A stretch of DNA of 34,339 bases from a virus. Taxonomy: Duplodnaviria; Heunggongvirae; Uroviricota; Caudoviricetes. Below the pieces are notes generated by a model. That model was given only the letters and a program-made list of their open reading frames with translations, was not told where the DNA came from and searched no databases. A program made the translations under genes and the position numbers. The stretch's first letter is position 1. Every line of letters starts with the position of its first letter. The stretch lies in IMG/VR virus record IMGVR_UViG_2648501437_000013. One strand, 5' to 3'. Positions 6,859-32,371 of this stretch are shown here, piece after piece.

Positions 6859-7942
6859 GAATCAGAATATCGTCCCATTTGAAATCATCCAGCTCAGACC
6901 ATTCATGAGGGAAAATAACGACCGGATCTGAATGCTCTGGAGCCTGTCGTTTCATTAGCTCACACACACTTTCCATGTGGTTATTGTACAAATGCACGTC
7001 AAAGCCAAAATGCACAAAGGCACCGGCCATGTGACCCGTAATCTTCGCGAGAAAATGAGTGAGAATGCCATAACCAGCAATATTGAATGGCATACCAACA
7101 AAAGTGTCTACGCTACGCTGTACGAGGCAGGAGTTGAGGATGCGTTTGGGGATTCCAAGTTCATCCAGTTCAGCTTCAGTAACACTGCCGTCCATCTCCA
7201 GATCGTATAGCATCTTGGTGTAGATAGACTCGTAACCGAGGCGACTGTGTTGAAGACCAATGTCAGTTGCCATCGTTAAACGGGTTTCAAAATCAAGCTC
7301 ACGACTCCACAAAGAGAAGACAAAGTGGCAAGGTGGCAGTTTCATATCCTCAAGCTCGCCTACGTTCCATGCGTTAAGCATGATGCGACGATCGGTAGGG
7401 TTCGTGCGCAGTGTATCGACAATACGCTGTAGCTGATCGATTTCACGGGACAGCACTACGCGATCTTCACTGATACCTAGGTATCCCTCGACTTTGTACC
7501 CGCGTTCACGGAAAGTAGCGATCTTGCTCAGATATTCACTATGGCTCACGATGCGGGTATCTTCCCATCGACGCCACTGCTTACCGTAAACTGGCCCCAA
7601 ATCGCCATTCTCATCGGCCCATGCATCCCAAATCTTAACGCCGTTATCCTTGAGAAATTGAATGTTACCCGTGCCTTTCAGATACCACTCAAGTTCGACA
7701 AGTAGTGGCTTAAGATTTACCGCCTTTCCAGAAATAAGCGGCACAGTCCCACCAGTAAGCATGTAGTAAGAGGGAACGTAGCAGGTGCTTAAAGTACCAG
7801 TGCCTGTGCGATCATCAGCCTGCACGCCGCTTTTAAGCACCGTCTCAATAACTTTTGCATACGATGCGTTTGTTACCTGACCGTTCGTATGCTCACGATT
7901 CAAAAGGAGTGACACAAAAACCTCACAAAGATAAGTAACCAC
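6812..7942 (-). CDS. thyA: Thymidylate synthase (ThyA) with ~45-aa internal insertion; annotated start uncertain
   Basis: DRTGTGT, LPPCH (catalytic Cys) and QRSVD...MPFNIAGY motifs; insertion between LPPCH and QRS blocks relative to E. coli ThyA; track start (GTG at 7942) lies inside a nested palindrome, so the true start is probably 10-25 codons downstream. Confidence 0.8.
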   Translation of the reverse strand: MVTYLCEVFVSLLLNREHTNGQVTNASYAKVIETVLKSGVQADDRTGTGTLSTCYVPSYYMLTGGTVPLISGKAVNLKPLLVELEWYLKGTGNIQFLKDNGVKIWDAWADENGDLGPVYGKQWRRWEDTRIVSHSEYLSKIATFRERGYKVEGYLGISEDRVVLSREIDQLQRIVDTLRTNPTDRRIMLNAWNVGELEDMKLPPCHFVFSLWSRELDFETRLTMATDIGLQHSRLGYESIYTKMLYDLEMDGSVTEAELDELGIPKRILNSCLVQRSVDTFVGMPFNIAGYGILTHFLAKITGHMAGAFVHFGFDVHLYNNHMESVCELMKRQAPEHSDPVVIFPHEWSELDDFKWDDILILGYDPLPWIKVPVAV

Positions 7943-7958
7943 TTATTCATTGTGTGAG
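7922..7958. promoter_or_regulatory. Nested palindrome CTCACA-aag-ATAAGT-aacc-ACTTAT-tcat-TGTGAG at the thyA operon head
   Basis: Read directly; the inner element belongs to the recurrent ATA(A/G)GTAA...TTAC(C/T)TAT family. Confidence 0.45.
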
Positions 7959-9033: not shown

Positions 9034-10176
9034 TTACAGGTCTGCAAACTGGCTTAGAGAAGCCTTATCCACGGTAGAATCGATCTGACCTACCAGATAT
9101 GTGCTTTGCTCTGCCTCTTGTGGTGCAATTTGCAGTGTGTCGGTTAACAACCACTTGTTCATCCAGACCAGCGGATCAGTGGTAACTTCTGGAAATAAAG
9201 CCTTCAGGCCAAGACGATTCATAGCCAGATTGGTGCGGTATTTTACATAGGTTTTGAGAATATCCGCGTTTAAACCAATCATCGAACCGTCTTTGAAGAG
9301 ATAGTCTGCCCAGTTCATTTCTTGTTCGGCGACTGATTTCATGGTGTCGTAAATGACGTTTTCTTCATCAGCAGCAATCTCTTTCCACAATAAACCTTCT
9401 CGACCGGTACGCATGAAGCGGATCATGCGTTCAGTTCCTTCGCAATGCAGAGCTTCATCACGGGCAATAAAGCGCATAATTTTGGTGTTACCCTCAAGCA
9501 ACTTCCGTTCGCCAAAGGCAAACGTACATGCAAAACTTACATAGAAACGGATCGCCTCAAGCGCATTAATGGACACCAACGTGCGGAAAAGCTGACGATG
9601 CAAAGGGTATGGCTCCCAGCCATATTCATTTACGTACAGACGTTCAAACTCCTTCTCACCTAACGACTGGCGCTCGCATGTCATCCCATAAAGCCTGTCA
9701 TATTCAGCAGAGATACTGATCGCTCGGTTGATGATTTCTTCATCCGTAACAATACCGTCAAAAACAATGCTCGGATCGTCCACCATGCCACGAATAATGT
9801 GGGTGTAGCTACGGCTATGGATAGTCTCAGAGAAAGACCACGTTTCAACCCACGTTTCCAGTTCAGGAATAGAGATAAGCGGCAGCAGCGTTGCATTTGG
9901 GCTACGTCCCTGAACTGAATCGAGCAACGTTTGATAACGGAGATTACTCAGGAAAATGTGGCGTTCGTGGTCCCGCAGCTTCGTATTGAAGTCGATGCGA
10001 TCGCTCGAAATATCAACTTCTTCCGGCCGCCAGAAGAAAGACAATTGACGTTCAATCAACTTTTCAAAATCACGGTATTTTTGCTGATCGTAACGTGCCA
10101 CGTTGACAGATTGTCCGAGGAACATAGGCTCTTTGGTTGCATCATTAGCACCCAAACGGAACGTTGAATATGACAT
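9034..10176 (-). CDS. nrdB: Ribonucleotide reductase class Ia beta subunit
   Basis: Near-collinear similarity to E. coli NrdB from MSYSTF... to ...YLVGQIDS (di-iron and tyrosyl-radical regions); start set at ATG 10176 with AAGGAAAAACAC leader. Confidence 0.9.
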
Positions 10177-10281
10177 GTGTTTTTCCTTTTGCTTTTTGAT
10201 GTGTTTAAACAAGTTGTTATCTTATTTGTTTAAACAAGGCTTACAAATCAAAGAGAAGGTGGGGATACACCCCACCATATG

Positions 10282-12636: not shown

Positions 12637-12645
12637 ATGTTAATA

Positions 12646-12663
12646 GATAGGCACTTACCTATC
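12646..12663. promoter_or_regulatory. Palindrome GATAGGCACTTACCTATC upstream of nrdA
   Basis: Arms GATAGG/CCTATC; recurrent motif family. Confidence 0.45.
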
Positions 12664-12670
12664 AATGAGA

Positions 12671-16128: not shown

Positions 16129-17214
16129 TCACACAGCCTCCGAACTCTCCGCTTCGGTGAGGATTTCCTGACACAAAATATCCAACTTGCTCAGATCAAA
16201 TCCGCCGTCAGTATCGTGGACAATCTTGCAATAAGCAGATACCGACTCTCCCAGGCTATCGATTTTGCTGGTTTCCGTTGTGCTTGCTGTCCCTTCCATC
16301 ATTGATGACTTACGGATGAAGTTGCACACAACACCTTTTGCACCCATTGTTTTGAGGATGTTCTGGTACTTAATGCCTTCTTCGTCGTTCTCGATTACGG
16401 CGCGGAAACGCACGTAGTTGCCGCGAATTTGGTCATCAGCAACATAATCTTCCAGGTTAATGAATTTAGGCGCACTGGTTTCGTAGTGACTGAAACTGCC
16501 GTCCGGGTTTACGATCATGTAACCAGCCAGAGATCCAACATCTCCCCAATTTTGATGGGTCAGTGCACCGACACTGATAACTCCAGGAATGACCTCTTTG
16601 TGGTTGTGGTAATGCCCACTAAGCACGAGACGAAAGCCGATATCCTTTAACTCCTGCGCATCGATACCGACGTCAGGCATTGTTGGAATGGCTTTGTTAA
16701 TGGATGTATGGATAACAACATCATGATTATCACCTTCTACGCTCTTACGTAATGCTTTCAGATCGCTGATAAGCTCTGCATGATTGTTACGCCAGCTAAT
16801 CAGGTGGACAGTCACATCACCAATTTTTATTGAGTGTGGGCGCTTGCCACATACGATTACCACGCCGATAGAACTCAGCGATGCTGCTGCGTTGGCGCTA
16901 TATACTGAATCGTTGGTTTCAAGATCGTGATTACCGGCCAGCATTACTACTGTCAGATCAAGCTCGTTGATAATCCACTTGTACGTTTCAGTTACGTAAT
17001 GCAAAACAGAAGGGGACACAGTTCCTCGGACGTGAAATGTATCACCGGCAACCAACATGTACTTACAACCGGCCTTCTTCATGGCGATGGCTGCTTCTTT
17101 CGTTGCTTCCAACTGTATTTCAAGTCTGGAGTTAAGCCCCTCAGCGTTCGTCGTGGAGAACGCATCCCATTTGTGGTAGTGGCAGTCAGAAATGACGCCG
17201 TATGGCAAAGTCAT
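16129..17214 (-). CDS. SbcD/Mre11-like nuclease (calcineurin-like phosphoesterase)
   Basis: Motifs ISDCHYH, AGDTFH, GNHD, GHYH; start moved from track TTG (17244) to ATG at ~17214 preceded by CCACAAAGGAAAAACAC. Confidence 0.8.
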   Translation of the reverse strand: MTLPYGVISDCHYHKWDAFSTTNAEGLNSRLEIQLEATKEAAIAMKKAGCKYMLVAGDTFHVRGTVSPSVLHYVTETYKWIINELDLTVVMLAGNHDLETNDSVYSANAAASLSSIGVVIVCGKRPHSIKIGDVTVHLISWRNNHAELISDLKALRKSVEGDNHDVVIHTSINKAIPTMPDVGIDAQELKDIGFRLVLSGHYHNHKEVIPGVISVGALTHQNWGDVGSLAGYMIVNPDGSFSHYETSAPKFINLEDYVADDQIRGNYVRFRAVIENDEEGIKYQNILKTMGAKGVVCNFIRKSSMMEGTASTTETSKIDSLGESVSAYCKIVHDTDGGFDLSKLDILCQEILTEAESSEAV

Positions 17215-17324
17215 GTGTTTTTCCTTTGTGGTTATTTGATACAAATCTTAAGCTTGCTCGAGAGGTGAGCAACCAAGACAGCACGGCACAGAAGAACATC
17301 AACAGGCATAGTATTACAAAATAA

Positions 17325-17344
17325 ATAGGTAAGTGAATACCTAC
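17325..17344. promoter_or_regulatory. Palindrome ATAGGTAAGTGAATACCTAC in the divergent AT-rich region upstream of sbcD
   Basis: Arms TAGGTA/TACCTA; same motif family as 2311..2330. Confidence 0.45.
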
Positions 17345-18793: not shown

Positions 18794-18895
18794 GTATGCT
18801 ACCAGCGGTAATTGATAGTCTGTCAACGGTTCGCCGTATGCTGCCAACTGTTTTTGGTATGCTGCCAGCGGCAAATCAAGTATGCTGTCAGCGGT
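18794..18895 (+). repeat. Origin-proximal iteron array (about 4 copies of TATGCTGYCAGCGGT, two degenerate)
   Basis: Copies at 18794, 18837 (degenerate), 18858, 18881, directly upstream of the repA start. Confidence 0.75.
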
Positions 18896-18915
18896 TGAAT
18901 GACAAAGGTGTCCAC

Positions 18916-20010
18916 ATGTCCACAAAAAATAAAAAAGGTAAAAATAACAAAGAAGTAGAAGATAATCTCGACAACTTTGAAGAAGGTTCCCTTGAATTGT
19001 ACACAGGGGAACTTGTCCCTAATAGCAACAATACAGTCCAACCAATTGCGTTGATGCGGCTGGGGTTGTTCGTGCCCACGCTCAAGGGGACAAAATACAG
19101 CAAGCGTAACAAGCCAAATGAGATCGATGCTTCAAAGGAGCTTGTTCAGCTCGAAGTAGCCCGTTCTGAAGGTTATTCCGATATCAAGATAACCGGTCCT
19201 CGTCTCGACATGGATCATGATTTCAAAACGTGGGTGGGCGTTGTGCGTTCGCTGGCAGAATACGGCGAACCTAACGGTCGTGTCGAGTTAAGCATCACGA
19301 AATTTGCGAAGTTTTGTGGCTATCCATCGTCACAGATCCGCAAAACACTCCGCGACCGGCTTACAAACAGTCTTTTGAAGATCATGCGTACAACTCTGTC
19401 TTTTCAGAGAACGTATGAAGAAAAGAACGTCGACGGCTCTAACAAGATCTCGCTTCTGATGGTGCACCTCATCAATAGCGTGGACTACAACGAGCAGAAA
19501 GATACGGTGGTGTTCTATGCAGAACCGAAGCTGGCCGAACTATATCGCTTTGACCATAAAGTTCTTTTGCAGTTAAAGGTTATCAATAAGCTACCACGCA
19601 AAGAAACAGCACAGGCTCTGTACACCTTCATCGAAAGTCTTCCAACCAAGCCTGCGCCGGTATCGCTTGCTCGATTACGTGCGCGACTCAATTTGAGTAG
19701 CAGGAATGTCAGCTCGCAGAATCAGACTATACGTAACGGCTTAAAAGCTCTCCAAGATTTGGGCTATCTCGAATACAGCGAGATTAAGCGAGGGCGGTCG
19801 ATCTATATCCAGATTCACAGCCGCAATCCAAAACTCAAAGTCGCACCGCCAAAACCTGAAGACATCGAACCCAAAAAACCAGATGAGAAAGCTGGGGAAA
19901 TTGATGCCAAACAGAACATTATCAACAAGATAACCGAACTTTCGCAGAATTTGACGCCTGAAAATATCAAGATGATTGAGATCCTTTCCAATAGTCTCAA
20001 ACTGCTTTGA
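18916..20010 (+). CDS. repA: Replication initiator RepA (P1 RepA / RepFIB-type)
   Basis: Recalled similarity to P1 RepA (NSNNTVQPIALMRLGLFVP, DIKITGPRLDMDHDFKTW, YTFIESLP, HSRNPKLK); start moved to ATG 18916 (AAAGG RBS) because the track start reads through the iterons. Confidence 0.85.
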   Translation: MSTKNKKGKNNKEVEDNLDNFEEGSLELYTGELVPNSNNTVQPIALMRLGLFVPTLKGTKYSKRNKPNEIDASKELVQLEVARSEGYSDIKITGPRLDMDHDFKTWVGVVRSLAEYGEPNGRVELSITKFAKFCGYPSSQIRKTLRDRLTNSLLKIMRTTLSFQRTYEEKNVDGSNKISLLMVHLINSVDYNEQKDTVVFYAEPKLAELYRFDHKVLLQLKVINKLPRKETAQALYTFIESLPTKPAPVSLARLRARLNLSSRNVSSQNQTIRNGLKALQDLGYLEYSEIKRGRSIYIQIHSRNPKLKVAPPKPEDIEPKKPDEKAGEIDAKQNIINKITELSQNLTPENIKMIEILSNSLKLL

Positions 20011-20542
20011 TATGCTGTCAGCGGTGAAATGTATGCTATCAGCGGCTATTTTTCTGAAAAGTATGCTGTGAACGGTTAAAGATATGCTACCAGCGGTATA
20101 GTGAGATAAACGTATGCTGTGAGCGGTAAATCATCTATCACCACTCAATGCTCTGGCATACCTCCCCAGTGGTTACTAACCTCGAAGAGTGCATTCCATA
20201 TAGGTTTGCGCTCACTAACATTCTATTGCCGTTGCGCTGATTGCTTGTAGTGAAAGGCATTTATTGCCTGCTGCTCCCTGATAGAACGTATGCTGTCAGC
20301 GGTGTTTTATTGAGGAATTTTTGTTTGGATATGCTATCAGCGGTAATTAATGGTATATGTCAGACCTTCGTATGCTGCCAGCGGTAATTTTGTTCTGGTT
20401 ATACCCATACCGGTACACATTATTCATGCAATGTCTTAAGTATGCTGTCAGCGGTAAAAAATCGAGTAAAGTATGCTGTGAGCGGTGAGATAAACTCTCG
20501 ATATGCTATCAGCGGTAATTGATTGTGTATGCTGTCAGCGGT
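20011..20542 (+). repeat. Downstream iteron array, 12 copies of TATGCT(G/A)(T/C)(C/G)A(G/A)CGG(T/C) in two groups (5 + 7) separated by a ~160-bp spacer
   Basis: Copies at 20011, 20032, 20062, 20083, 20113, 20289, 20330, 20371, 20441, 20472, 20503, 20528, all in the same orientation; position matches a P1 incA-like copy-control locus. Confidence 0.8.
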
Positions 20543-20558
20543 GACGACTATGAAATAT

Positions 20559-20589: not shown

Positions 20590-20802
20590 TTAGTGTATTT
20601 TCTTTAACAGACCCCAAAGTGTTCCGGCTTTTGTAGTCAGTTTTCCTGTTTCTGGATCGTACATACGCCATTCACGCCGCTGGTGGACGATATACCCATC
20701 TTCACGTTCCAGACGCTCAAGAATGCCAGGCTGCTTGAAACCCTTAGCACGCCAGTAGCCGCTTGTTTTCTCGATTTCCAGACCTGCCAGTGTTAATGCC
20801 AT
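20590..20802 (-). CDS. Hypothetical protein (70 aa)
   Basis: Intact ORF translationally coupled to the upstream gene. Confidence 0.4.
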   Translation of the reverse strand: MALTLAGLEIEKTSGYWRAKGFKQPGILERLEREDGYIVHQRREWRMYDPETGKLTTKAGTLWGLLKKIH

Positions 20803-21137
20803 TATCCAACCTCCTTGCAGTCATCGAAAAGGTAGCTTTGCTGAGAAGCGTGAACGCCATAGAAGCCCTTGTATTTGTTGTATACGAAGTGGTCTTCTCC
20901 GACGCCGGTTAATTTGCCATTACGGTTTGTGAGATATGGGGATGACAATACTCGATCGTCACGCACTACATAGAACTGGTCGCCGCTGTCTACGACCATC
21001 GCGCCATATGGTGCTTTTATGACGTCGGTAAAAGCGCCATTCTTAATGTCGGCTACAGACATTTCACACTGATAAACAGTGGTGTCGGCCACAACGATCG
21101 AAGAAAGGAACAACAGAGCGAATGGGATGGCCTTCAT
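20802..21137 (-). CDS. Predicted secreted/periplasmic protein (111 aa) with N-terminal signal peptide
   Basis: MKAIPFALLFLSSIVVA hydrophobic leader followed by a polar mature region with two Cys. Confidence 0.55.
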   Translation of the reverse strand: MKAIPFALLFLSSIVVADTTVYQCEMSVADIKNGAFTDVIKAPYGAMVVDSGDQFYVVRDDRVLSSPYLTNRNGKLTGVGEDHFVYNKYKGFYGVHASQQSYLFDDCKEVG

Positions 21138-21313
21138 GCTGCCACCTCTTTGATTACATCAAATGCTGAATTAAATACGAGCACGATAGCCAAAGCGTTT
21201 ATGACTACTTCGTTCACCGGGGAAAAGACTTTACGAATGACACCAGTGAAAATGCAGTCGATGACAAAAGCTATTGACACGATGAGTAACAAGTATTCAA
21301 TAAAAATCTTCAT
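21134..21313 (-). CDS. Small hydrophobic membrane protein (59 aa, two predicted TM helices), absent from the ORF track
   Basis: My translation: MKIFIEYLLLIVSIAFVIDCIFTGVIRKVFSPVNEVVINALAIVLVFNSAFDVIKEVAA; its TGA overlaps the ATG of 20802..21137 (ATGA coupling). No strong RBS. Confidence 0.35.
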   Translation of the reverse strand: MKIFIEYLLLIVSIAFVIDCIFTGVIRKVFSPVNEVVINALAIVLVFNSAFDVIKEVAA

Positions 21314-21352
21314 GATAGGTAGATACTAACTTATATAAATTTTACTGTAAAC

Positions 21353-21628
21353 TCACTCAAAAGTGCTGATGCTTAAAATACGCTCAAGATGTGCGGCATC
21401 TTCATCACTGATTTGTTGAGTCTCTTCTACGTACCAACAGTTGCCGTTATGCCAACAAACACCATCATCATCAACCATCACTGAATCAGCGTCATGACCT
21501 GTATATTCAACGAGAATGCGCTGGATCAGCGCGTCAGTTTCTTCGTCGTTAAGGCCATCGGCTTTGACCATAAAAAGCGGAAACACGTCATAGACAGTGC
21601 TGGTAACGATTCGAACTAAAACTCTCAT
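21353..21628 (-). CDS. Hypothetical protein (91 aa)
   Basis: Intact ORF preceded by the conserved CCACAAAAGGAAAAACAC leader. Confidence 0.5.
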   Translation of the reverse strand: MRVLVRIVTSTVYDVFPLFMVKADGLNDEETDALIQRILVEYTGHDADSVMVDDDGVCWHNGNCWYVEETQQISDEDAAHLERILSISTFE

Positions 21629-21683
21629 GTGTTTTTCCTTTTGTGGTTAGTGTTTACTTATTTTGTTAGTTATGAATAGGCGA

Positions 21684-22109: not shown

Positions 22110-22159
22110 GTTTTCTTATCCTTTTAAACAAATTGTTTTCTTAATAAGATAATTGCGAT

Positions 22160-22196
22160 AAAAAAGGCGTCCAACTGGACGCCTGAACTTTTTAGG
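22160..22196. terminator. Rho-independent terminator A6-GGCGTCCA-act-GGACGCC-T5
   Basis: GC-rich stem flanked by A-run and T-run (bidirectional); downstream of the SPFH gene. Confidence 0.8.
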
Positions 22197-22200
22197 GGAG

Positions 22201-23031
22201 TTATTTCACTGTAATGAAAGGAGTGTTAGCCCCTTGAGTCATGTACTGCGGTAACTGGCCATTCCATTTATTGATGGCTTCCAGTTCCATAACGTTCGGG
22301 TTTTGACGCAGAGCTTCACCGCGCAGACGAATGGCGTCTGCTTCTGCTTGCGCACGAGCACGGATAGCATCAGCTTCACCATTAGCCTGTTCACGTAGCA
22401 TATTCGCCTCAGCTTTACGTTGTTCAACTTCCTGCTGACGTTGCAGAGTACGCTGGTTAGCCGTTACTTTGGCGTTAATAGATTCAATGACAGTTTTTGG
22501 GTAATCAGGCTTTCCAACCCATGACAGGCTCAGTACCTCAATACCAACCGGAGACATCTCTTTCTGAATATCTTTCAGTGCGTTGTCCAGCAATTGTGCC
22601 TTACCACCGTCGATAAATGAGTCAGTGGTCATACGGCTGGCCAAACGGTTTAGAGAGTCGGCAATTTTCTGACGCAGATCTGATTCGGTGATATCGTCTA
22701 CGCCTTTGCGATAGGTCTGGAACACCGTCGTTACCTTGTCACGATTAACCAGATACGCAACGCCAATTTTGTGACCAATAGCAGTACCGTCACTCATCTG
22801 GAATGTGAACGGCTCGTCGTAGGTCTTCATTTGTTTGAAGGTCGGGAATACGTAAAGTTCGGTGTTAAGACCTGTCCATTGGCGACCAACGCCAACCACT
22901 TCACCAATCCCTTTGTCTTCACCTAATTTGTTTACTTTGATGCCAACGTATCCAGGCTCCACGCGATCGCAGCCAGTAAGACCCATTGTGCAAATAGCCG
23001 CCAGAGCAACTGCAAGTAAACCTTTCTTCAT
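22201..23031 (-). CDS. SPFH/Band-7 (stomatin/prohibitin-like) lipoprotein
   Basis: Signal peptide with lipobox LTGC; core resembles the SPFH domain; C-terminal Ala/Glu/Arg/Gln-rich coiled-coil region. Confidence 0.65.
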   Translation of the reverse strand: MKKGLLAVALAAICTMGLTGCDRVEPGYVGIKVNKLGEDKGIGEVVGVGRQWTGLNTELYVFPTFKQMKTYDEPFTFQMSDGTAIGHKIGVAYLVNRDKVTTVFQTYRKGVDDITESDLRQKIADSLNRLASRMTTDSFIDGGKAQLLDNALKDIQKEMSPVGIEVLSLSWVGKPDYPKTVIESINAKVTANQRTLQRQQEVEQRKAEANMLREQANGEADAIRARAQAEADAIRLRGEALRQNPNVMELEAINKWNGQLPQYMTQGANTPFITVK

Positions 23032-23034
23032 TAC

Positions 23035-23235
23035 TTATTTCCCCTTTGCTTTGATTAATGAGTTGATAAACTTACGACCAGCAATAAGACCGATTACAGG
23101 AGCACCAAAACCAACGATAACTCCAAACATGACGGCTAAATCACTCTTGGTAGAAATCAGCGACGGAACCAGTAAACCGTAGATGAGAGCCACTGAAAGG
23201 CCTGTGGCTACTGCCAATAGATAGATTTTGATCAT
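23035..23235 (-). CDS. Small membrane protein (66 aa, two TM segments), first gene of the SPFH operon
   Basis: Hydrophobic sequence MIKIYLLAVATGLSVALIYGLLVP...VIVGFGAPVIGLIAG; conserved leader upstream. Confidence 0.5.
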   Translation of the reverse strand: MIKIYLLAVATGLSVALIYGLLVPSLISTKSDLAVMFGVIVGFGAPVIGLIAGRKFINSLIKAKGK

Positions 23236-23267
23236 GTGTTTTCCTATGTGGTTGTTATGCGAAAATA

Positions 23268-23283
23268 ATAAGTAAGTGCTTAT
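23268..23283. promoter_or_regulatory. Palindromic motif ATAAGTAAGTGCTTAT upstream of the SPFH operon
   Basis: Arms ATAAG/CTTAT; recurrent motif family. Confidence 0.4.
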
Positions 23284-23297
23284 ATATTTTCAAGAGA

Positions 23298-23325
23298 TAA
23301 AAAAGGCGTCCTGTGGACGCCTTGT
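23298..23325 (-). terminator. Rho-independent terminator A6-GGCGTCC-tgt-GGACGCC (T6 on minus strand)
   Basis: Same GGCGTCC...GGACGCC stem as 22160 and 25635; downstream of the recombinase gene. Confidence 0.8.
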
Positions 23326-23327
23326 GT

Positions 23328-24401
23328 TTACTCTTCTACTGACTCGGTGGGGTTGTCTTTTGCTCTTCGGTCGTCGATTGCCTGCAAAGCCGCAATGATT
23401 TCAGCCAGTGGCTTCTCCCGATACATCTCGACGATCTGCGATTTGGTGTATTTCTTGTCACCAATTTCAACTCGCCCGCTGGCGTTCTTTGGCAGGTATC
23501 CTTCTTCCAGCATGTACTCGACGAGCGATTCGATAACGTCGAGGCCACGAGTAGGATCGAAGTAGAATTTCCAGGTGCATTTGCCATACGGTGGTGCAAC
23601 TTTGTTTTTGATGCATTCTGCGCCTACGTCCTGGCCGATCTTCTCTTTACCATCCTTCATCACCGATGCACCAAGACGGATACGTACAGAAGCGTAGAAC
23701 TTCGGTGAATCTCCACCTGGCGACGTAGTAGGGTCGCCAAACATTACACCGATTTTTGTGCGAACCTGATTCAAGAAGATGATGCAGGCGTTGTATTTGC
23801 GTGCCCACAAAGCCAGAGTAGGGAAGTTCGCACTCGTCGCACGAGCCAGTGCCGTATTGTCGTTCATGTTTAGCTGATCTTTGTCTTTGGCAGTGCCTTC
23901 AGCCATCTTTTCGAACTTCTCGGCTTTGGAGTTCGGAACCATAGACGCAAGAGAGTCAGCCACGATACAGATTGGTGCTGATTCGGGGATAAGCTCTTCA
24001 TCACGAACCAATTTAAGTATTGTGCCGATCAACTCTACAGAGTCTTCGAAGGTATCTGGCTGCTTGTATACCCACTGACCGTCATCCTCATCTGCGTTCA
24101 GGCCATTGGCGACAGCCAGGCCAACGTCAAAACTGTTTTCATGATCGAGGAATACCGCCAGACCATCTTGTTTTTGAGCGGAGATCATCGCTGCTGTTGC
24201 AAGGAACGTTTTCCCTGCACTTGGAGGACCGAATACTTCGACGATACGACCACATGGGAAGCCGCCATCGTAACGACCAGAAATAGCTTTGTTTAACGGT
24301 GGAAAGCCTGTATCAATCCAATGAGTTACTTTCTGAATTTCGTCGTTGCTACCGATTTTCTTTTTCAGAGCAAGTGCCAGTGCGGATTTTCCTTTTGCCA
24401 T
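23328..24401 (-). CDS. RecA-superfamily recombinase (UvsX/RecA-like)
   Basis: Walker A VEVFGPPSAGKTF, Walker B-like VFLDHENSFD; ~357 aa as for RecA/UvsX. Confidence 0.8.
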   Translation of the reverse strand: MAKGKSALALALKKKIGSNDEIQKVTHWIDTGFPPLNKAISGRYDGGFPCGRIVEVFGPPSAGKTFLATAAMISAQKQDGLAVFLDHENSFDVGLAVANGLNADEDDGQWVYKQPDTFEDSVELIGTILKLVRDEELIPESAPICIVADSLASMVPNSKAEKFEKMAEGTAKDKDQLNMNDNTALARATSANFPTLALWARKYNACIIFLNQVRTKIGVMFGDPTTSPGGDSPKFYASVRIRLGASVMKDGKEKIGQDVGAECIKNKVAPPYGKCTWKFYFDPTRGLDVIESLVEYMLEEGYLPKNASGRVEIGDKKYTKSQIVEMYREKPLAEIIAALQAIDDRRAKDNPTESVEE

Positions 24402-25674: not shown

Positions 25675-26703
25675 TTACAGAGAGTCCAGCTCTCTCAGTA
25701 GGTCATCCAGACCTTCATCTTCCGTCGCAGATGCGGTTGCTACAGATGTCGCTGCGACTGCTTCAGACTCTTTGACTGATACGGCAACGGCAGCGGAACT
25801 TGCCTCTGGTTTAAATTCAGTTTCAACGGCACGGAGGATTTCTTCATCAACCAGACTGGTTGGTTCAGAAGCCGGTGTGTGCGCGGTTGCTACAGCCGTC
25901 GCTCCTTCTGTATGACCAGTGACAGAGCCAAATCCAGGTAGTGCCGCAGCCGATGTTTTCGCGGTTGAGGAAATTGCTGGTGCAGATGCTGCGGCAGTTG
26001 GTGCAGCGATGCCAATCAGACGACCCATAGTGCGAACTGTCGACAGAAGACGAGTTTCATCAGCCTGATTTGCGTATGCGATCAGATCATGCTGGGTGTT
26101 CCAGAATTTATCTTCGATATCGCCTTTGTAGACTTTACGCTTAGGCGAGACGTCATATTTGGTATCGCGACCAGAGCCAGTACGTTTAATCAGGAATGCG
26201 TAGCCTTCCTCTTTGCTCAGTGGATTGCCGATATCATCAGCGATGTCTTCGGTGATTGCTTTGCAGATATCATCGAATACAGTAGACGGCAGCTCGATTA
26301 ACTGGCATTTCTCAGCATCTGCGAAATCCTCACGAGCAGAAAGAATGCCGTTGACCAGGTAGCGAGGAGTGGCACGCATTTGACCGATGCGTTCTTCCAT
26401 TGCTTTGTTACCCTTGTGACGAGCGCGACCTTCCATCACCATTTCGCATAGCTGACAAGCGCGACCGTGAGTATGTTGCTCACAAATATAAGCGTTGGTT
26501 GCTTCTTTACCTTCCTCGTTCTGATACTTAACGTAGTGCATACCGAAAGTCTGGAAGAACTTACCGTTTGGGTCGTCTTTATTCGGGAAGATGCGGATAT
26601 AGTTGACGCCGTCTTTTAAGCGAGTCAGATCAACGTTGTTACCACGTTTGGCGGCAATGTCTTCACGAGTTTTGTTAAGCAAATCAAGTAATGTCTTAGA
26701 CAT
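25675..26703 (-). CDS. Single-stranded DNA-binding protein, T4 gp32-like
   Basis: Cys/His cluster CEQHTHGRACQLCEM, Ala/Ser/Thr-rich linker, acidic C-terminal tail EDEGLDDLLRELDSL. Confidence 0.55.
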   Translation of the reverse strand: MSKTLLDLLNKTREDIAAKRGNNVDLTRLKDGVNYIRIFPNKDDPNGKFFQTFGMHYVKYQNEEGKEATNAYICEQHTHGRACQLCEMVMEGRARHKGNKAMEERIGQMRATPRYLVNGILSAREDFADAEKCQLIELPSTVFDDICKAITEDIADDIGNPLSKEEGYAFLIKRTGSGRDTKYDVSPKRKVYKGDIEDKFWNTQHDLIAYANQADETRLLSTVRTMGRLIGIAAPTAAASAPAISSTAKTSAAALPGFGSVTGHTEGATAVATAHTPASEPTSLVDEEILRAVETEFKPEASSAAVAVSVKESEAVAATSVATASATEDEGLDDLLRELDSL

Positions 26704-26786
26704 GTGTTTCTCCTTGTTGTGATTTGGCCGATGGCGCTATGCGCGTTGGGCTTTCGTTCATTCGTGGCTCTTTCGAGCTGTTAAAT

Positions 26787-30300: not shown

Positions 30301-30896
30301 CTGGCGACTTTCATCGCCCGGACGTTAATCTGGTCGTAGAATGGGGTAGGGTGCGGATAAACCACACTATAGAAGTTGTCTTTTCCACCCGCTGTAATCA
30401 GTGTGCTTATAATTTTTGCAAAATCGTTGCGTTGGAACACGCTACCGATGTCGGAAGTAAGCAGGATGATGTTGCCTTTGGCATATGTAGAAACCAACTG
30501 TTCGAGCGAGAGACGCGGTACAAAGTAGAACTGTTCTCGTGTGTTGGCCGCCGTCATTAGTTCGCAGATGTCGCGATATCCTTTCTCATTTTTAATTAGA
30601 GCGGTAAACGAGTAGTTACGTCCTCGCTCTAATGATTCCATACATCCCTTAGATTCTTTAGCAAGTTTAGCCCGGTGCTCGTATGTGGGATCATCAACGA
30701 TATTTAGTTTCACACCACAAATAACCGCCATGTCGCCACCAGCGGCACGTTGTAGTGGAATAACACTCGCAATATTCATGCTATCTGCTGAAATTACAGC
30801 GGTGTAGCCAGCTTCTCTGGCAATCTTCACCGCGTTTTCTGCTTTTAAAGCCGACTCCCCAAGTGAGAAGTCAGTTCGAACCATCAGTGCCTTCAT
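27378..30896 (-). CDS. dnaE: DNA polymerase III alpha subunit (DnaE-type replicative polymerase, N-terminal PHP domain)
   Basis: 1172 aa; PolC/DnaE palm motif GYFLMVRDLMNHSRETGIPVGPGRGSSAGSLVAWCIGITNVDP; PHP-like N-terminus; length close to E. coli DnaE, no intein-sized insertion. Confidence 0.9.
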   Translation of the reverse strand: MKALMVRTDFSLGESALKAENAVKIAREAGYTAVISADSMNIASVIPLQRAAGGDMAVICGVKLNIVDDPTYEHRAKLAKESKGCMESLERGRNYSFTALIKNEKGYRDICELMTAANTREQFYFVPRLSLEQLVSTYAKGNIILLTSDIGSVFQRNDFAKIISTLITAGGKDNFYSVVYPHPTPFYDQINVRAMKVASALKIEPVAFYPAYYESIDDADIKDIAHMVTNNIKIDQPHRLRIPHQRDNAVNGRRHLLEALKAFSVRMDVPVTAAMASTTQDTIIDACTWRWHELPPALPKMADDEPATLMKLAVAGLRKRLTTKEFGYTPPASENRVYVERLKYEMDTLTRLGFCGYFLMVRDLMNHSRETGIPVGPGRGSSAGSLVAWCIGITNVDPIRHGLLFERFINPERLDLPDADLDFSQARRHEVIEYLNERYGEDYVAGIPNFTYLGAASALRDTARIYGVESADMAVSKELKNVEDDSLPLEELREQLASLDKYATKYPDAFNAACKLQSLMRGFGRHAAGMIVAGVLLTERTPVERRGDARCIAFDKRYCEAMGLIKLDVLGLATLDLLDSAKRYIKENTGEDINLDAISLEDRKVLDGFAAGYTQGVFQLESGPMRKLLKDLGGGIEPMSFKTVVATTALFRPGPIQSGMLDDYVSVAKGFMTPESLHPVLDELTAETNGVILYQEQTMNATRLLAGFTMAEADGVRKAIGKKDMEKMKSMGEKFIVQAQAGWIDVELEDGTTQRIHRAEHFKCEDGTLKTVEEALEHGAKLPINAVRVTASHPGLSEMKAKEIWTAFEKNGAYQFNKSHSVAYSLISYQSMWLKTHYPAEFFAAALTILGEDKHQGLVKDALTYGIRVLPPDVNVSSNRIEIRTLEDGSQVLYAPFSAVKGCSENGCQAIMRAREKVGGKFESLAQFEEAVEKRACNSRVRESLQKVGAFASIEPGSLPATAPERLRDQAELMGNLVIDAVKASRPFEMNPKRSAEINVLMTRMAAEMGLGDELIRPSIGIKPKIMIILDNANGNDARTGYFMENGYDDFKAKLLTAGDLRMGDLYVTGVCKKVKDKEKDYTKDEIGQFTDFIREEINLVRPTYVLTCGSRATALFNNKNKPSDLVGRKEYLPDLDVTVFYGFNPNILYFRPEEGERLEAILADVAETIKT

Positions 30897-31076
30897 GTGT
30901 TTTTACCTTTCTGGTTTTTTTGATTTTGTCATTTGGGAAGCCTACGAACTTCCCATGCATCGAAATCGCAACTTCTTTTGCTGATTGGTGACAATCAGGC
31001 TTGTCTGGACACACCAGACAAGCCTTACCAGTTTCAGAAGCAGCGATAAGAGAGCCGAAACATCCTTTACGCACGA

Positions 31077-32312
31077 TCAACCAAATATTTTTTGAACAAC
31101 TTCACGAGCCGCTTGTGCAGAAGCTGAAGGGAGTTTGTTAATGAAAGAACGCTCAATACCTGTCACAAAGTCGCCTCGCATCATTCCAATCTTGGCCGAC
31201 AACAAAAGTTCACGAGGGCCAATTGGCTGACTGATAAGGTGTTCTTCGTATCCATCGCGAACGATACCGGCAAACTTAACCATCTTTTCTGCGTATTCAC
31301 CCACGATACCGGCATTTATCAACATGTTGATCTCTGCCTCTTTGCTCATGTATTTCACATTCGAAACGATGCCAAAACGCGAAAAGTTCGCGGCGTTCTG
31401 GATGTTTGTACCCTGGTACAAGCCGGTTTCATCACCAGATCCGTTCGTGTTGCCAGTGCCAATGAAAGCAAACCGTTCATGCGGAGTAATGCGACGCCAT
31501 TCTGGAGTCGCCTCTTTGATGACCAACGCTTCACCTTCCAGCACTGGCTGATACACGCCAAGAATCTGTGGAAACGCAAAGTCGTATTCATCCGCGAGGT
31601 AAACCCAGCCATGCTTCATTGCGAGCGCAAGCAAGCCAGGCTCGAAATACGTAGAGCCATCACGCGCCAGAATTTGCCCCGTAACATGTGCCTCTTCCAT
31701 TGATGCTGTATGTTGGGCACGGATCAACGGACGATTGAGCAAAGCACATAGCTGTGTAGGCAATGACGATTTGCCTGTTCCTGCATGACCCCACAAATAG
31801 CCAGGTATGCCAAGTTCAAGCATCATGAAAATATCTTTGATCAGTTCGAAGTCGCCATATACGTAGCCCTTCTTCACTTCTGGAACGAACTCTGGATACG
31901 GCGTATTGACGTTGACGCTAACCATGAGCGGCGTCCCACGTTTTGTTCCGAGTTCTTCCACCGTTACGTTTAGCAGTTCGTGAGCTGCGACCAGATCTGT
32001 CTTGTACTCAACTGTGCCTGTGTAGCCAGGGCTACTGGTCAAGCCAGAAGATTTGGCCATTTCGCTTTTTTGCTCGGCACGTTTAGCTTGAATTGCATCA
32101 AGTGCCTTTTTCGATAGCGTTGGCTCATCTGGAAACTGCGTTGTGTACATTTTCAGTACGGTGTCAGGATCGGCATCTTTTACTGACTCAGGAATGCCCT
32201 CGCAATTACCATTGGCTACATGGGACTTAAAATAGTGAAATGATTTGCCGCACCACTTGCAAACAAGGTAATCAGAATGATTTTTTTCATTTTGCAGTGC
32301 AGTAGTCGTCAT
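31077..32312 (-). CDS. MoxR/CbbQ-class AAA+ ATPase (CobS-like) with N-terminal Cys-rich zinc-finger-like segment
   Basis: Walker A GHAGTGKSS, Walker B-like WVYLADEYD; N-terminal CKWCG...H...C; directly upstream of a vWA protein. Confidence 0.7.
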   Translation of the reverse strand: MTTTALQNEKNHSDYLVCKWCGKSFHYFKSHVANGNCEGIPESVKDADPDTVLKMYTTQFPDEPTLSKKALDAIQAKRAEQKSEMAKSSGLTSSPGYTGTVEYKTDLVAAHELLNVTVEELGTKRGTPLMVSVNVNTPYPEFVPEVKKGYVYGDFELIKDIFMMLELGIPGYLWGHAGTGKSSLPTQLCALLNRPLIRAQHTASMEEAHVTGQILARDGSTYFEPGLLALAMKHGWVYLADEYDFAFPQILGVYQPVLEGEALVIKEATPEWRRITPHERFAFIGTGNTNGSGDETGLYQGTNIQNAANFSRFGIVSNVKYMSKEAEINMLINAGIVGEYAEKMVKFAGIVRDGYEEHLISQPIGPRELLLSAKIGMMRGDFVTGIERSFINKLPSASAQAAREVVQKIFG

Positions 32313-32371
32313 GCGTTTTTCCTTTGTTCTCTAATGAGCGTTCAACTTCTTATATAAATATACCATTAACT

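Follow-up and report, generated by a model that had tools for sequence, protein, structure and literature searches.

A two-gene cassette pairing a small membrane protein with an SPFH lipoprotein in an SSU5-type phage-plasmid and other phages

Introduction

Beside the DNA-metabolism genes of a tailed-phage element, two minus-strand open reading frames (ORFs) encode a small membrane protein and a lipoprotein of the SPFH/Band-7 family. Do these genes form a unit of their own, and what might a phage do with such a pair? The window analysed here, the whole stretch of 34,339 nucleotides (IMG/VR record IMGVR_UViG_2648501437_000013), had been interpreted once from its letters. That sequence-only reading described an insulated operon with its own leader and palindromic motif, regarded it as unexpected cargo, and connected SPFH proteins of mobile elements with superinfection exclusion or the regulation of membrane proteases. 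We find that the two-gene cassette is real and a genuine, self-contained unit of an SSU5-type phage-plasmid. The gene pair is already known at the annotation level, where hundreds of phages, N4 (gp19/gp20) among them, are recorded as carrying it.

Genomic setting and layout of the cassette

The whole window represents an SSU5/Cyrano-type phage-plasmid, and identical cassettes carry annotation in public genomes. With a 1301-bp query (window:22100-23400), nucleotide identity was 99% to Escherichia phage CMS-2020a and 94% to Cyrano, in agreement with the phage-plasmid context proposed earlier. The cassette and its control elements, in the direction of transcription, are as follows.

23303..23323, minus strand: upstream intrinsic terminator, AAGGCGTCC-ACA-GGACGCCTT, then T6; 9-bp stem with 6 GC pairs
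23265..23293, minus strand: sigma-70-like promoter, TTGAAA-17 nt-TATTAT, 10/12 consensus matches
23265..23286, minus strand: copy of the recurrent palindrome, TATATAAGCACTTACTTATTAT, covering the promoter spacer and -10 box; 2 mismatches
23236..23250, minus strand: translation-initiation leader, ATAGGAAAACAC, directly before the ATG of the 66-aa gene
23035..23235, minus strand: small membrane protein, 66 aa, PHROG 1130, like N4 gp19 and SSU5_061
22201..23031, minus strand: SPFH/Band-7 lipoprotein, 276 aa, PHROG 200, like N4 gp20 and SSU5_062
22165..22184, minus strand: downstream intrinsic terminator, AGGCGTCC-AGTT-GGACGCCT, then T6; ends the cassette

The two ORFs form one operon, 23235..23035 followed by 23031..22201, with an intergenic gap of 3 nt (TAA GTA ATG) and a ribosome-binding site, AAGGGG, within the 3' end of the 66-aa gene. 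This arrangement shows a gene pair that is predicted to be co-transcribed and translationally coupled. The ORFs, their spacing, and the Band_7 match and lipobox described below all agree with the discrete two-gene operon that was first proposed.

SSU5 and Cyrano carry the pair in the same slot, after RecA. The slot is empty of the pair in the Klebsiella phage-plasmid pJN2-26, whose RecA is 94% identical, and in Pseudomonas phage nickie. Since both elements share the backbone without the pair, the pair is accessory cargo lying outside the conserved DNA-metabolism module, as had been suggested. With its own promoter and terminators, and missing from this slot in pJN2-26 and nickie, it shares these features with morons; it is not listed among the 13 morons of Cyrano (PMC9928086).

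Insulation of the cassette by terminators holds on both sides. The upstream hairpin folds at -20.1 kcal/mol (z -6.26) and the downstream one at -15.6 kcal/mol (z -4.23), and for neither did any of 200 shuffles fold as well. The upstream terminator is predicted to end the RecA/UvsX-like operon and to shield the cassette from read-through. Its hairpin recurs in about 45 loci of related phage-plasmids, where the loop varies and one stem carries a compensatory change (GGCGCCC/GGGCGCC); the downstream terminator is also conserved in relatives, and pJN2-26 has a different hairpin after RecA. The pattern GGCGTCC-N2-6-GGACGCC matches twice in the whole window (0 expected), and the two matches flank the cassette. 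We considered these identical terminator stems as possible marks of a target duplication.

All related phage-plasmids keep the -35 box and a -10 box of TATTAT or TATCAT, and the pair of Cyrano is transcribed independently of its flanks, both in accordance with a promoter belonging to the cassette. The 22-nt palindromic motif occurs at nine sites in the window versus 0.03 expected. The cassette has its own copy, as reported before, placed inside the promoter spacer and -10 box and conserved in relatives, and we presume that it is a repressor operator. The claim of a conserved leader holds in part: the shared element, AGGAAAAACACATG, does recur, with six copies in the window versus 0.5 expected, but the copy of the cassette, AGGAAAACACATG, is a variant one base shorter. 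An RNA element in the leader was ruled out, the whole window giving no Rfam match at gathering thresholds.

The SPFH lipoprotein

The 276-aa protein matches phrog_200 at 3e-108 and Pfam Band_7 (PF01145) at 106.2 bits versus a cut-off of 23.6 (E 2.6e-30), the entire profile being aligned to residues 23-209. Its gene is under strong purifying selection (dN/dS ~0.03). Three parts can be delimited.

22969..23031, minus strand: lipoprotein signal peptide, residues 1-21, with the lipobox LTGC at 22969-22980
22405..22965, minus strand: SPFH1 and SPFH2 core, residues 23-209 (Pfam); AlphaFold2 block-mean pLDDT 71-95
22303..22497, minus strand: long coiled-coil helix, residues 179-243 (65 residues; AlphaFold2), then a short helix and a conserved C-terminal tail

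After the signal peptide, the phage protein thus consists entirely of a full SPFH architecture. The cages of HflK/C, prohibitin and erlin have a wall and a cap built from this coiled-coil and tail region. The AlphaFold2 monomer model of the phage protein has a mean pLDDT of 78, with low values in the C-terminal tail, as would be expected if the tail folds only in an oligomer. The best Foldseek matches to this model were HflC (5e-14), erlin1/2, HflK and prohibitin, and full-length matches comprised HflC, HflK, erlin, prohibitin, stomatin, flotillin and QmcA (E 5e-14 to 4e-7). At the sequence level, the sole PDB match was HflK, and the top NCBIfam matches were HflC and HflK; both equivalogs were missed widely, HflC TIGR01932 with 30.2 versus 134.4 bits and HflK TIGR01933 with 18.7 versus 159.4.

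The signal peptide, MKKGLLAVALAAICTMG-LTGC, combines a positive n-region, a hydrophobic h-region and the lipobox L18-T-G-C21, which conforms to the pattern [LVI][ASTVI][GAS]C. Among 22 homologues, the Asp at position +2 (Asp22) is invariant and both Cys21 (at least 90%) and Gly20 are nearly so, which confirms that the protein was rightly called a lipoprotein. According to the +2 sorting rule for lipoproteins, an Asp at this position is an inner-membrane retention signal. Asp22 is thus predicted to keep the protein at the inner membrane, with the SPFH domain on the periplasmic side, although the Arg at +3 might weaken this retention. More distant homologues also retain the Cys of the lipobox, but their +2 residue is Tyr, Glu, Ser, Gly or Asn, and inner-membrane retention may therefore not be general in the family.

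The small membrane protein

The 66-aa protein is predicted to cross the membrane with two transmembrane (TM) helices, joined on the periplasmic side by a conserved turn (YGLLVPSLISxKSD), and its C-terminus is a basic tail. It matches phrog_1130 at 2.1e-25, as do the small proteins of seven other backbones (E 1e-28 to 2e-7). A word-indexed protein search with this short query reached close relatives only, and the distant partners were recovered by reading the loci and by PHROG/HMM scans. The allele of the window is of the 'E. coli CMS-2020a' type, 73% identical to that of Cyrano and ~59% to the SSU5 type. We ruled out an NfeD identity: the protein matches no Pfam family at E <= 0.01, NfeD included, and an OB-fold would not fit into 66 aa.

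The size, topology and charged C-terminus of this protein presumably resemble those of class II holins. From this likeness, a function in lysis timing can be imagined, where the 66-aa protein would act as a holin or pinholin (N-in/C-in, with a basic tail) restrained or organised by the SPFH scaffold. We regard this as highly improbable, given that a long distance separates the pair from the lysis cassette, that Cyrano encodes its holin, endolysin and Rz/Rz1 elsewhere, that early or replication regions house the pair in all backbones, and that no holin family of Pfam or PHROG is matched. A spanin-like arrangement of an outer-membrane lipoprotein with an inner-membrane partner was also dropped, since the Asp at +2 is invariant, the genes are located outside the lysis cassette and Cyrano has Rz/Rz1 genes of its own elsewhere.

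A mobile module of many phage backbones

The PHROG 1130 gene lies directly upstream of the SPFH gene in 170 of the 173 testable loci, which are partly redundant and span at least eight phage backbones. The two genes are separated by -19 to +4 nt, except in PVP-SE1 (150 nt). This constancy favours an obligate partnership of the two proteins. SSU5_061/062, CYRAN_56/57 and N4 gp19/gp20 are of the same family and in the same order as the pair of the window, with no essential difference. An identity of the pair with P1 Plp/Upl was ruled out: plp (126 aa) and upl (63 aa) lie on the opposite strand and neither matches the cassette.

Overall, the pair matched 413 phage records. Apart from the SSU5 type, it is found in some P1-like phage-plasmids, in the P2-like P88, in lambdoid/Stx prophages, Stx2a-converting phages among them, and in virulent N4-like and rV5-like phages, including the model phage N4. 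Among complete E. coli genomes, 195 of 5,426 match with at least 80% query coverage, and 195 of the 296 matching places are on plasmids. Identity of the SPFH protein is 100% in Cyrano, ~95% in SSU5-type phage-plasmids and 63% in the N4-like phage Moo19. The PHROG 1130 and PHROG 200 pair is a mobile module. In P1-like elements it lies in the ban operon, which C1 controls; in P88 it belongs to the early operon, and in lambdoid prophages to the early-left arm. To call it unexpected beside DNA-metabolism genes was an overstatement, since across at least eight unrelated backbones the pair either adjoins replication or recombination genes or sits in early operons.

Several of these contexts bear on the proposal that the pair serves in superinfection exclusion or blocks entry, with a periplasmic SPFH layer and the two-TM protein halting, at the level of the inner membrane, the injection of DNA from other phages or the import of colicins. 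Envelope proteins that phages express early are often exclusion factors, as in T4 (Imm/Sp) and T5 (Llp), and this pair is present in virulent phages. Next to the pair in Moo19 is a gene whose annotation names an exclusion protein similar to P22 gp17. In P1-like elements the pair takes the slot held by tciABC in P1, some of them having it in place of plp-upl-tciABC; tciABC is annotated for tellurite or colicin resistance by homology only. The category given to PHROG 1130 itself is 'moron, auxiliary metabolic gene and host takeover'. The 66-aa partner evolves more rapidly than the SPFH protein and is exchanged through recombination, which would suit an exclusion factor, but its selection is purifying and not diversifying (dN/dS 0.13-0.34), and none of the variable neighbours is a known defence gene. 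We ruled out a known defence system, with neither protein of the pair matching PADLOC at E <= 0.1 and none of the variable neighbours giving a match that we accept. Among these neighbours, one marginal PADLOC match to LmuB (E 0.007) was regarded as chance.

The link between SPFH proteins of mobile elements and superinfection exclusion, which the sequence-only reading had put forward, was not found in the literature: our searches returned no paper connecting the two and a single incidental co-mention. Searches on SPFH proteins with defence, as phage-encoded proteins or in N4-like phages gave annotation-level remarks only. We consider exclusion somewhat unlikely, and the expression of the pair restricts the form that it could take.

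Expression in the near-identical element Cyrano

Published RNA-seq values, as log2(fpkm+5), are available for Cyrano, a near-identical element in strain LF82 (PMC9928086, S1 Table). In LB, CYRAN_56 has the floor value (2.32) and CYRAN_57 lies at 3.0-4.3; after 6 h in macrophages, both reach 7.25-7.7, while the flanking replication genes are near 4, which places the pair ~10-fold above its flanks (PMC9928086). These data show that the pair is silent in LB lysogens and is induced in macrophages independently of both neighbouring operons, with the caveat that RNA counts of intracellular bacteria are low. Silence in LB lysogens, together with the repressor-controlled operons that harbour the pair elsewhere, argues against classical exclusion by a resting prophage, and superinfection exclusion in the resting lysogen is disfavoured. 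If the pair excludes other phages, this expression pattern suggests that it would do so mainly in lytic development, in the manner of T4 Imm/Sp.

The same data have a bearing on a possible benefit to the host, in which stress of the host cell, such as that inside macrophages, would turn on an envelope factor or lysogenic conversion. Such a factor might stabilise the inner membrane, change the surface, or act as a triacylated lipoprotein in virulence or immune modulation. In its favour, the pair of LF82/Cyrano rises from the LB floor to ~7.3-7.7 in macrophages, where Cyrano makes no virions (PMC9928086). Induction without virion production fits a host benefit as well as it fits leakage of early genes. 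Other genes of Cyrano, namely integrase, a cro-side gene, capsid and tail genes, also go up in macrophages (PMC9928086), and the signal may thus be partial derepression and not a dedicated stress response.

A further argument for host benefit comes from PM0222 of Pasteurella multocida, a prophage-borne, HflK/C-like protein of 25-35 kDa that occurs in outer-membrane vesicles and triggers TLR1/2 signalling; deleting it alters capsule, adhesion, serum sensitivity and virulence (PMC9872710). It is likened to PHROG 200 by description, being prophage-borne, SPFH/HflK/C-like, of similar size and lipoprotein-like in behaviour, and it may be the only studied relative; its phenotypes concern bacterial virulence, not phage biology. 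Strictly virulent phages, in which the family is common, gain nothing from host fitness. Taking these points together with the low intracellular RNA counts and the concurrent rise of other Cyrano genes, we judge a host-benefit function improbable.

A possible HflK/C-like cage in the periplasm

Our favoured explanation, held tentatively and at somewhat less than even confidence, is that the pair is an accessory unit making a two-part envelope complex, an HflK/C-like periplasmic cage on the inner membrane. The lipoprotein would be kept in the outer leaflet of the inner membrane and would oligomerise into a periplasmic dome or ring, as do HflK/C, prohibitins and erlins, enclosing a patch of membrane that holds the two-TM partner. 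The lipid anchor and the separate hairpin protein would together take the place of the N-terminal TM helix that cellular SPFH proteins have. In the resting plasmid-prophage the unit would be off, and its own operator-bearing promoter would turn it on upon early-gene derepression or host stress. Most speculative is the step that we nevertheless favour, in which the cage is a viral mimic of HflK/C that would control which inner-membrane proteins are reached by FtsH or another membrane machine, such that phage or host membrane proteins are stabilised during phage development. HflC/HflK, erlins and prohibitins are oriented away from the cytoplasm and gate proteolysis in the membrane. The protease-regulation idea put forward earlier (HflK/C-FtsH) fits the predicted topology and the fold matches and may hold. 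The presence of the pair in strictly virulent N4-like and rV5-like phages points to a role in lytic growth.

Among solved proteins, HflK/HflC are the best matches in both sequence and structure. They share with the phage protein the architecture of SPFH1, SPFH2, coiled coil and tail, as well as the orientation towards the periplasm (predicted for the phage protein), yet sequence identity is only ~16-18%. HflK/HflC have an N-terminal TM helix and form a K/C heteromer, whereas the phage system has a lipid anchor, a single SPFH gene and a dedicated 66-aa partner with two TM helices. The SPFH-NfeD operons (QmcA-YbbJ, PDB 8z5g; YqiK-YqiJ) also place an SPFH gene next to a co-oriented membrane-protein gene, and QmcA-YbbJ has the same SPFH fold (Foldseek rank 42). 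Their partner is an NfeD protein, while that of the phages has only 66 aa and neither an NfeD OB-fold nor a protease domain. Moreover, QmcA and YqiK face the cytoplasm, whereas the phage SPFH protein is predicted to be exported and lipidated. T4 Imm/Sp, T5 Llp and Cor, which are small early phage membrane proteins or lipoproteins, are possible functional analogues with no sequence or fold relationship to the pair.

Implications

In the literature up to 2026, we found no experiment on any member of the PHROG 1130/200 families; the role of phage SPFH lipoproteins has been termed unclear (PMC13239085) or only speculated on (PMC10269572). The pair is common and strongly conserved, extending to Stx2a-converting phages and to the model phage N4, and its study could uncover a new means by which phages condition the inner membrane or keep rivals out. 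In LF82, a strain associated with Crohn's disease, the induction specific to macrophages hints that the pair may play a part in host-pathogen biology. A phage SPFH scaffold in the periplasm would also offer a simple setting in which to study the choice and control of clients by SPFH cages. In its broadest form, which we consider rather unlikely, the proposal is that many temperate and virulent families carry a widespread viral HflK/C cage, divided between an SPFH protein anchored by lipid in the periplasm and a separate two-TM hairpin, that fences off a patch of inner membrane early in infection and either shields or captures a host machine such as FtsH or blocks rival DNA. If true, phages would have here a general means, not described so far, of taking control of the inner membrane of the host.

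Gene organization and encoded products

Positions 22201-23235 hold exactly two ORFs, both on the minus strand, and the two-gene operon described in the sequence-only reading was borne out by the ORFs themselves, a Band_7 match, a lipobox and a promoter.

Features of the cassette
23323..23303, minus (coding) strand, upstream terminator-like hairpin followed by T6 (folding -20.1 kcal/mol, z -6.3)
23235..23035, minus strand, small protein of 66 aa (ORF reading)
23031..22201, minus strand, SPFH lipoprotein of 276 aa (ORF reading and Pfam Band_7)
22184..22165, minus (coding) strand, downstream terminator-like hairpin followed by T6 (folding -15.6 kcal/mol, z -4.2)

Only 3 nt separate the two genes (TAA GTA ATG), and the ribosome-binding site of the SPFH gene lies within the 3' end of the small gene. 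The 276-aa protein matches Pfam Band_7/SPFH (2.6e-30, 106 bits; cut-off 23.6) and begins with a lipoprotein signal peptide, MKKGLLAVALAAICTMG-LTGC. According to the +2 rule, an Asp after the lipobox Cys leads to inner-membrane retention; Asp22 occupies this position and is invariant in 22 homologues, and retention of the SPFH lipoprotein in the inner membrane is therefore predicted. The small protein, for which a Pfam search found no family, consists of two hydrophobic helices separated by a short turn, and a basic tail. Its conserved segment is the periplasmic turn, (Y/F)G-x-(L/V)(L/V)P-x-(L/M)(I/V)S-x-x-(D/S).

An AlphaFold2 model of the SPFH protein (mean pLDDT 78) places a 65-residue helix (179-243) after the SPFH core, then a short helix, and gives the C-terminal tail low confidence. 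The best full-length PDB matches found by Foldseek were, in order, HflC (5e-14), erlin1/2, HflK and prohibitin, followed by stomatin, flotillin, major vault protein and QmcA (in the QmcA-YbbJ complex). The first four control membrane proteolysis and are all oriented away from the cytoplasm, a group that the predicted periplasmic site of the phage protein fits. Unlike HflK/HflC, the phage protein is predicted to be anchored by a lipid rather than a TM helix and is encoded by a single SPFH gene, and its partner is not NfeD (Pfam). Orthology to HflK or HflC was ruled out, the score being far under the equivalog cut-offs.

Both genes are constrained, the SPFH gene very strongly: against SSU5-type alleles its dN/dS is about 0.03 (dS >1), and that of the small gene is 0.13-0.34, with no sign of diversifying selection on either gene in this comparison. 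The SPFH gene of Cyrano is 100% identical in nucleotides to that of the window, whereas identity falls to 79.6% in the small gene, 3 nt upstream; for the related locus L053 the values are 99.9% and about 80%. This drop, with a small-gene dS of 0.63 against both, marks a sharp recombination junction at 23031/23035.

Control elements and expression

The two terminator hairpins have the same stem, and the window contains just these two hairpins of the form GGCGTCC-N-GGACGCC (0 expected). Together with the promoter, palindrome and leader they are kept in about 45 related loci, one of which carries a compensatory double change in the terminator stem; terminators on both sides, as first proposed, thus stand. 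The promoter, TTGAAA-17-TATTAT, lies past the upstream terminator and ahead of the first ATG, and the cassette does have its own palindromic motif, a 22-nt copy filling the promoter spacer and -10 box. This motif, TAAGYRNNYACTTACYTATYAT, occurs nine times in the window (0.03 expected), always in intergenic positions. At promoter-like sites it overlaps the -10 box, and a single repressor co-controlling many early or DNA-metabolism operons of the phage-plasmid probably uses it as operator.

Copies of the 22-nt palindrome (motif search of the window)
93-114; 97-118; 2308-2329; 7932-7953; 12644-12665; 17322-17343; 21312-21333; 23265-23286; 26785-26806

Copies of the translation-initiation element AGGAAAAACACATG (motif search of the window)
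10174-10187; 17212-17225; 21626-21639; 26701-26714; 30894-30907; 32310-32323

The latter element heads six other genes (0.5 expected). The conserved leader claimed for the cassette is present as a variant of it, one base shorter. The ORFs listed as TTG 10212 and TTG 17244 probably begin at ATG 10176 and ATG 17214. A second palindrome, AAACAATTTGTTT / TTGTTTAAACAA, lies at 22125-22145 and 10189-10238; it is found directly past the downstream terminator, before the DUF7238 gene, is kept in relatives, and may represent another operator class.

Published RNA-seq of E. coli LF82 covers the near-identical cassette of its phage-plasmid Cyrano (PMC9928086, S1 Table).

Expression of the Cyrano cassette and its flanks, log2(fpkm+5), two replicates (PMC9928086)
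CYRAN_56 (small protein): LB overnight 2.32 / 2.32 (floor); macrophages 6 h 7.61 / 7.70
CYRAN_57 (SPFH): LB overnight 4.30 / 3.02; macrophages 6 h 7.25 / 7.42
RecA (upstream flank): LB overnight 3.56 / 3.12; macrophages 6 h 4.06 / 4.05
CYRAN_58 (downstream flank): LB overnight 2.69 / 2.32; macrophages 6 h 4.20 / 3.94

Because the pair is induced while both flanks stay near 4, the unit is transcriptionally insulated, in agreement with the sequence-only reading. In the ordinary plasmid state the cassette is silent, and it can be activated independently of its neighbours; the 13 Cyrano morons that the lysogen expresses in LB include neither gene (PMC9928086). Macrophage induction hints at a stress-induced factor for host benefit or virulence, as does the Pasteurella prophage protein PM0222 (PMC9872710), a putative relative. 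Other Cyrano genes are also up in macrophages, among them the integrase, one beside the repressor and some for capsid and tail; no virions were detected there (PMC9928086). Either partial derepression or a stress response could account for the rise. CYRAN_60-62 likewise reach 8.3-9.0 in macrophages against floor or near-floor values of 2.3-3.8 in LB (PMC9928086). Their homologues in the window are three small genes at 20590-21313; the Cyrano copies, induced along with the SPFH pair, include one predicted membrane protein and one P1 Cra-like protein.

Distribution across phage backbones

The window is an SSU5-type phage-plasmid. A query of 1301 bp spanning the cassette shows 99% identity to Escherichia phage CMS-2020a and 94% to Cyrano (phage-plasmid pLF82 of E. 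coli LF82), where the genes are annotated 'membrane protein' and 'Stomatin-like integral membrane protein'; SSU5 carries the pair in the same position, past the RecA-like gene (SSU5_061 and SSU5_062). With at least 80% coverage the query matched 195 of 5,426 complete E. coli genomes. Plasmids bear 195 of the 296 matching places (those listed mostly about 106-128 kb); about 100 more are in chromosomes, where the SPFH gene is about 76% identical. Public databases therefore already contain the sequence under the same annotation, and the cassette is known as a gene pair (PHROG 1130 and PHROG 200; SSU5_061/062; N4 gp19/gp20).

Two neighbouring regions deserve mention. Fourteen 17-nt iterons (GTATGCTGTCAGCGGTG) at 18794-18896 and 20010-20543 lie on both sides of repA (18796-20010, plus strand), and this is the plasmid replication origin region. 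The RecA/UvsX-like gene (23328-24401, minus strand) encodes 357 aa against 779 aa in Cyrano (L001 13230-15569); the alignments of PhiR41_1 and Klebsiella phage p4727 likewise start only at residue 65. The extra stretch in Cyrano is probably an intein, the window carrying the insertion-free allele.

The cassette is an accessory, mobile unit. At this slot it is absent from Klebsiella phage-plasmid pJN2-26, whose RecA is 94% identical and followed by an unrelated opposite-strand gene, and from Pseudomonas phage nickie, which retains the SSB-exonuclease-RecA order. Among P1-like phage-plasmids only some, such as RCS47 and 813R1, carry the pair, which in them is flanked by trnT and trnI within the C1-controlled ban operon. 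In 813R1 (L089 4703-8581) it replaces, between tRNA-Thr and tRNA-Ile/Met upstream of ban, the plp-upl-tciABC genes of P1 itself (L100 2849-6160). The pair also lies in the early operon of P2-like phage P88. Lambdoid prophages of Shigella, Klebsiella and E. coli, among them Stx2a-converting phages and phiP27, carry it in their early-left arm. More distant carriers are virulent N4-like phages (Moo19 gp30/gp31, annotated as similar to N4 gp19/gp20); rV5-like PVP-SE1 and a Vibrio siphovirus have it too. The supposed unexpected cargo is thus accessory but not unusual, the same pair recurring on unrelated backbones.

The SPFH protein matched 413 phage records (tblastn). On all these backbones the small proteins belong to PHROG 1130 and the SPFH proteins to PHROG 200. 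A search with an HMM of ten small proteins found the small gene directly 5' of the SPFH gene in 170 of the 173 loci (partly redundant) with enough upstream sequence; it is missing only from the three most distant homologues (at most 38% identity). The gap is -19 to +4 nt, except in PVP-SE1 (150 nt). In SSU5-type elements the slot and the stretch after the cassette vary (L010, L015, L033 4900-7000; L035 4900-5540; L098 5065-5895, all related loci); extra genes there encode DUF1281_C/Api92-like, coiled-coil and NinX-like proteins and an HTH-like ORF, and none matched a known defence system.

Possible function

We found no evidence for the superinfection-exclusion link raised earlier. Exclusion by the resting lysogen is disfavoured, since the cassette is silent in LB and the pair sits in repressor-controlled early operons on other backbones. 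Rival explanations are that the pair excludes superinfecting DNA or colicins during lytic growth, that it is a stress-induced factor for host benefit or virulence, or that it times lysis. No function for an SPFH lipoprotein of phages was reported in the literature searched. One paper, from 2026, says that why phage genomes carry it 'remains unclear' (PMC13239085), and another speculates on lysogeny control via HflC (PMC10269572).

We favour, speculatively, a viral mimic of HflK/C. The SPFH lipoprotein, kept at the periplasmic side of the inner membrane, would oligomerize into an HflK/C-like dome enclosing a membrane patch with its two-TM partner, a lipid anchor and separate hairpin protein replacing the usual SPFH TM helix. 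Such a dome may gate client access of FtsH or another membrane machine during phage development. Nothing in these findings would surprise a specialist. They show an autonomous, accessory, strongly conserved operon whose predicted products are a full-length SPFH protein, exported and anchored by a lipid, and its obligate partner with two TM helices, a pair that is very widespread and tightly conserved.
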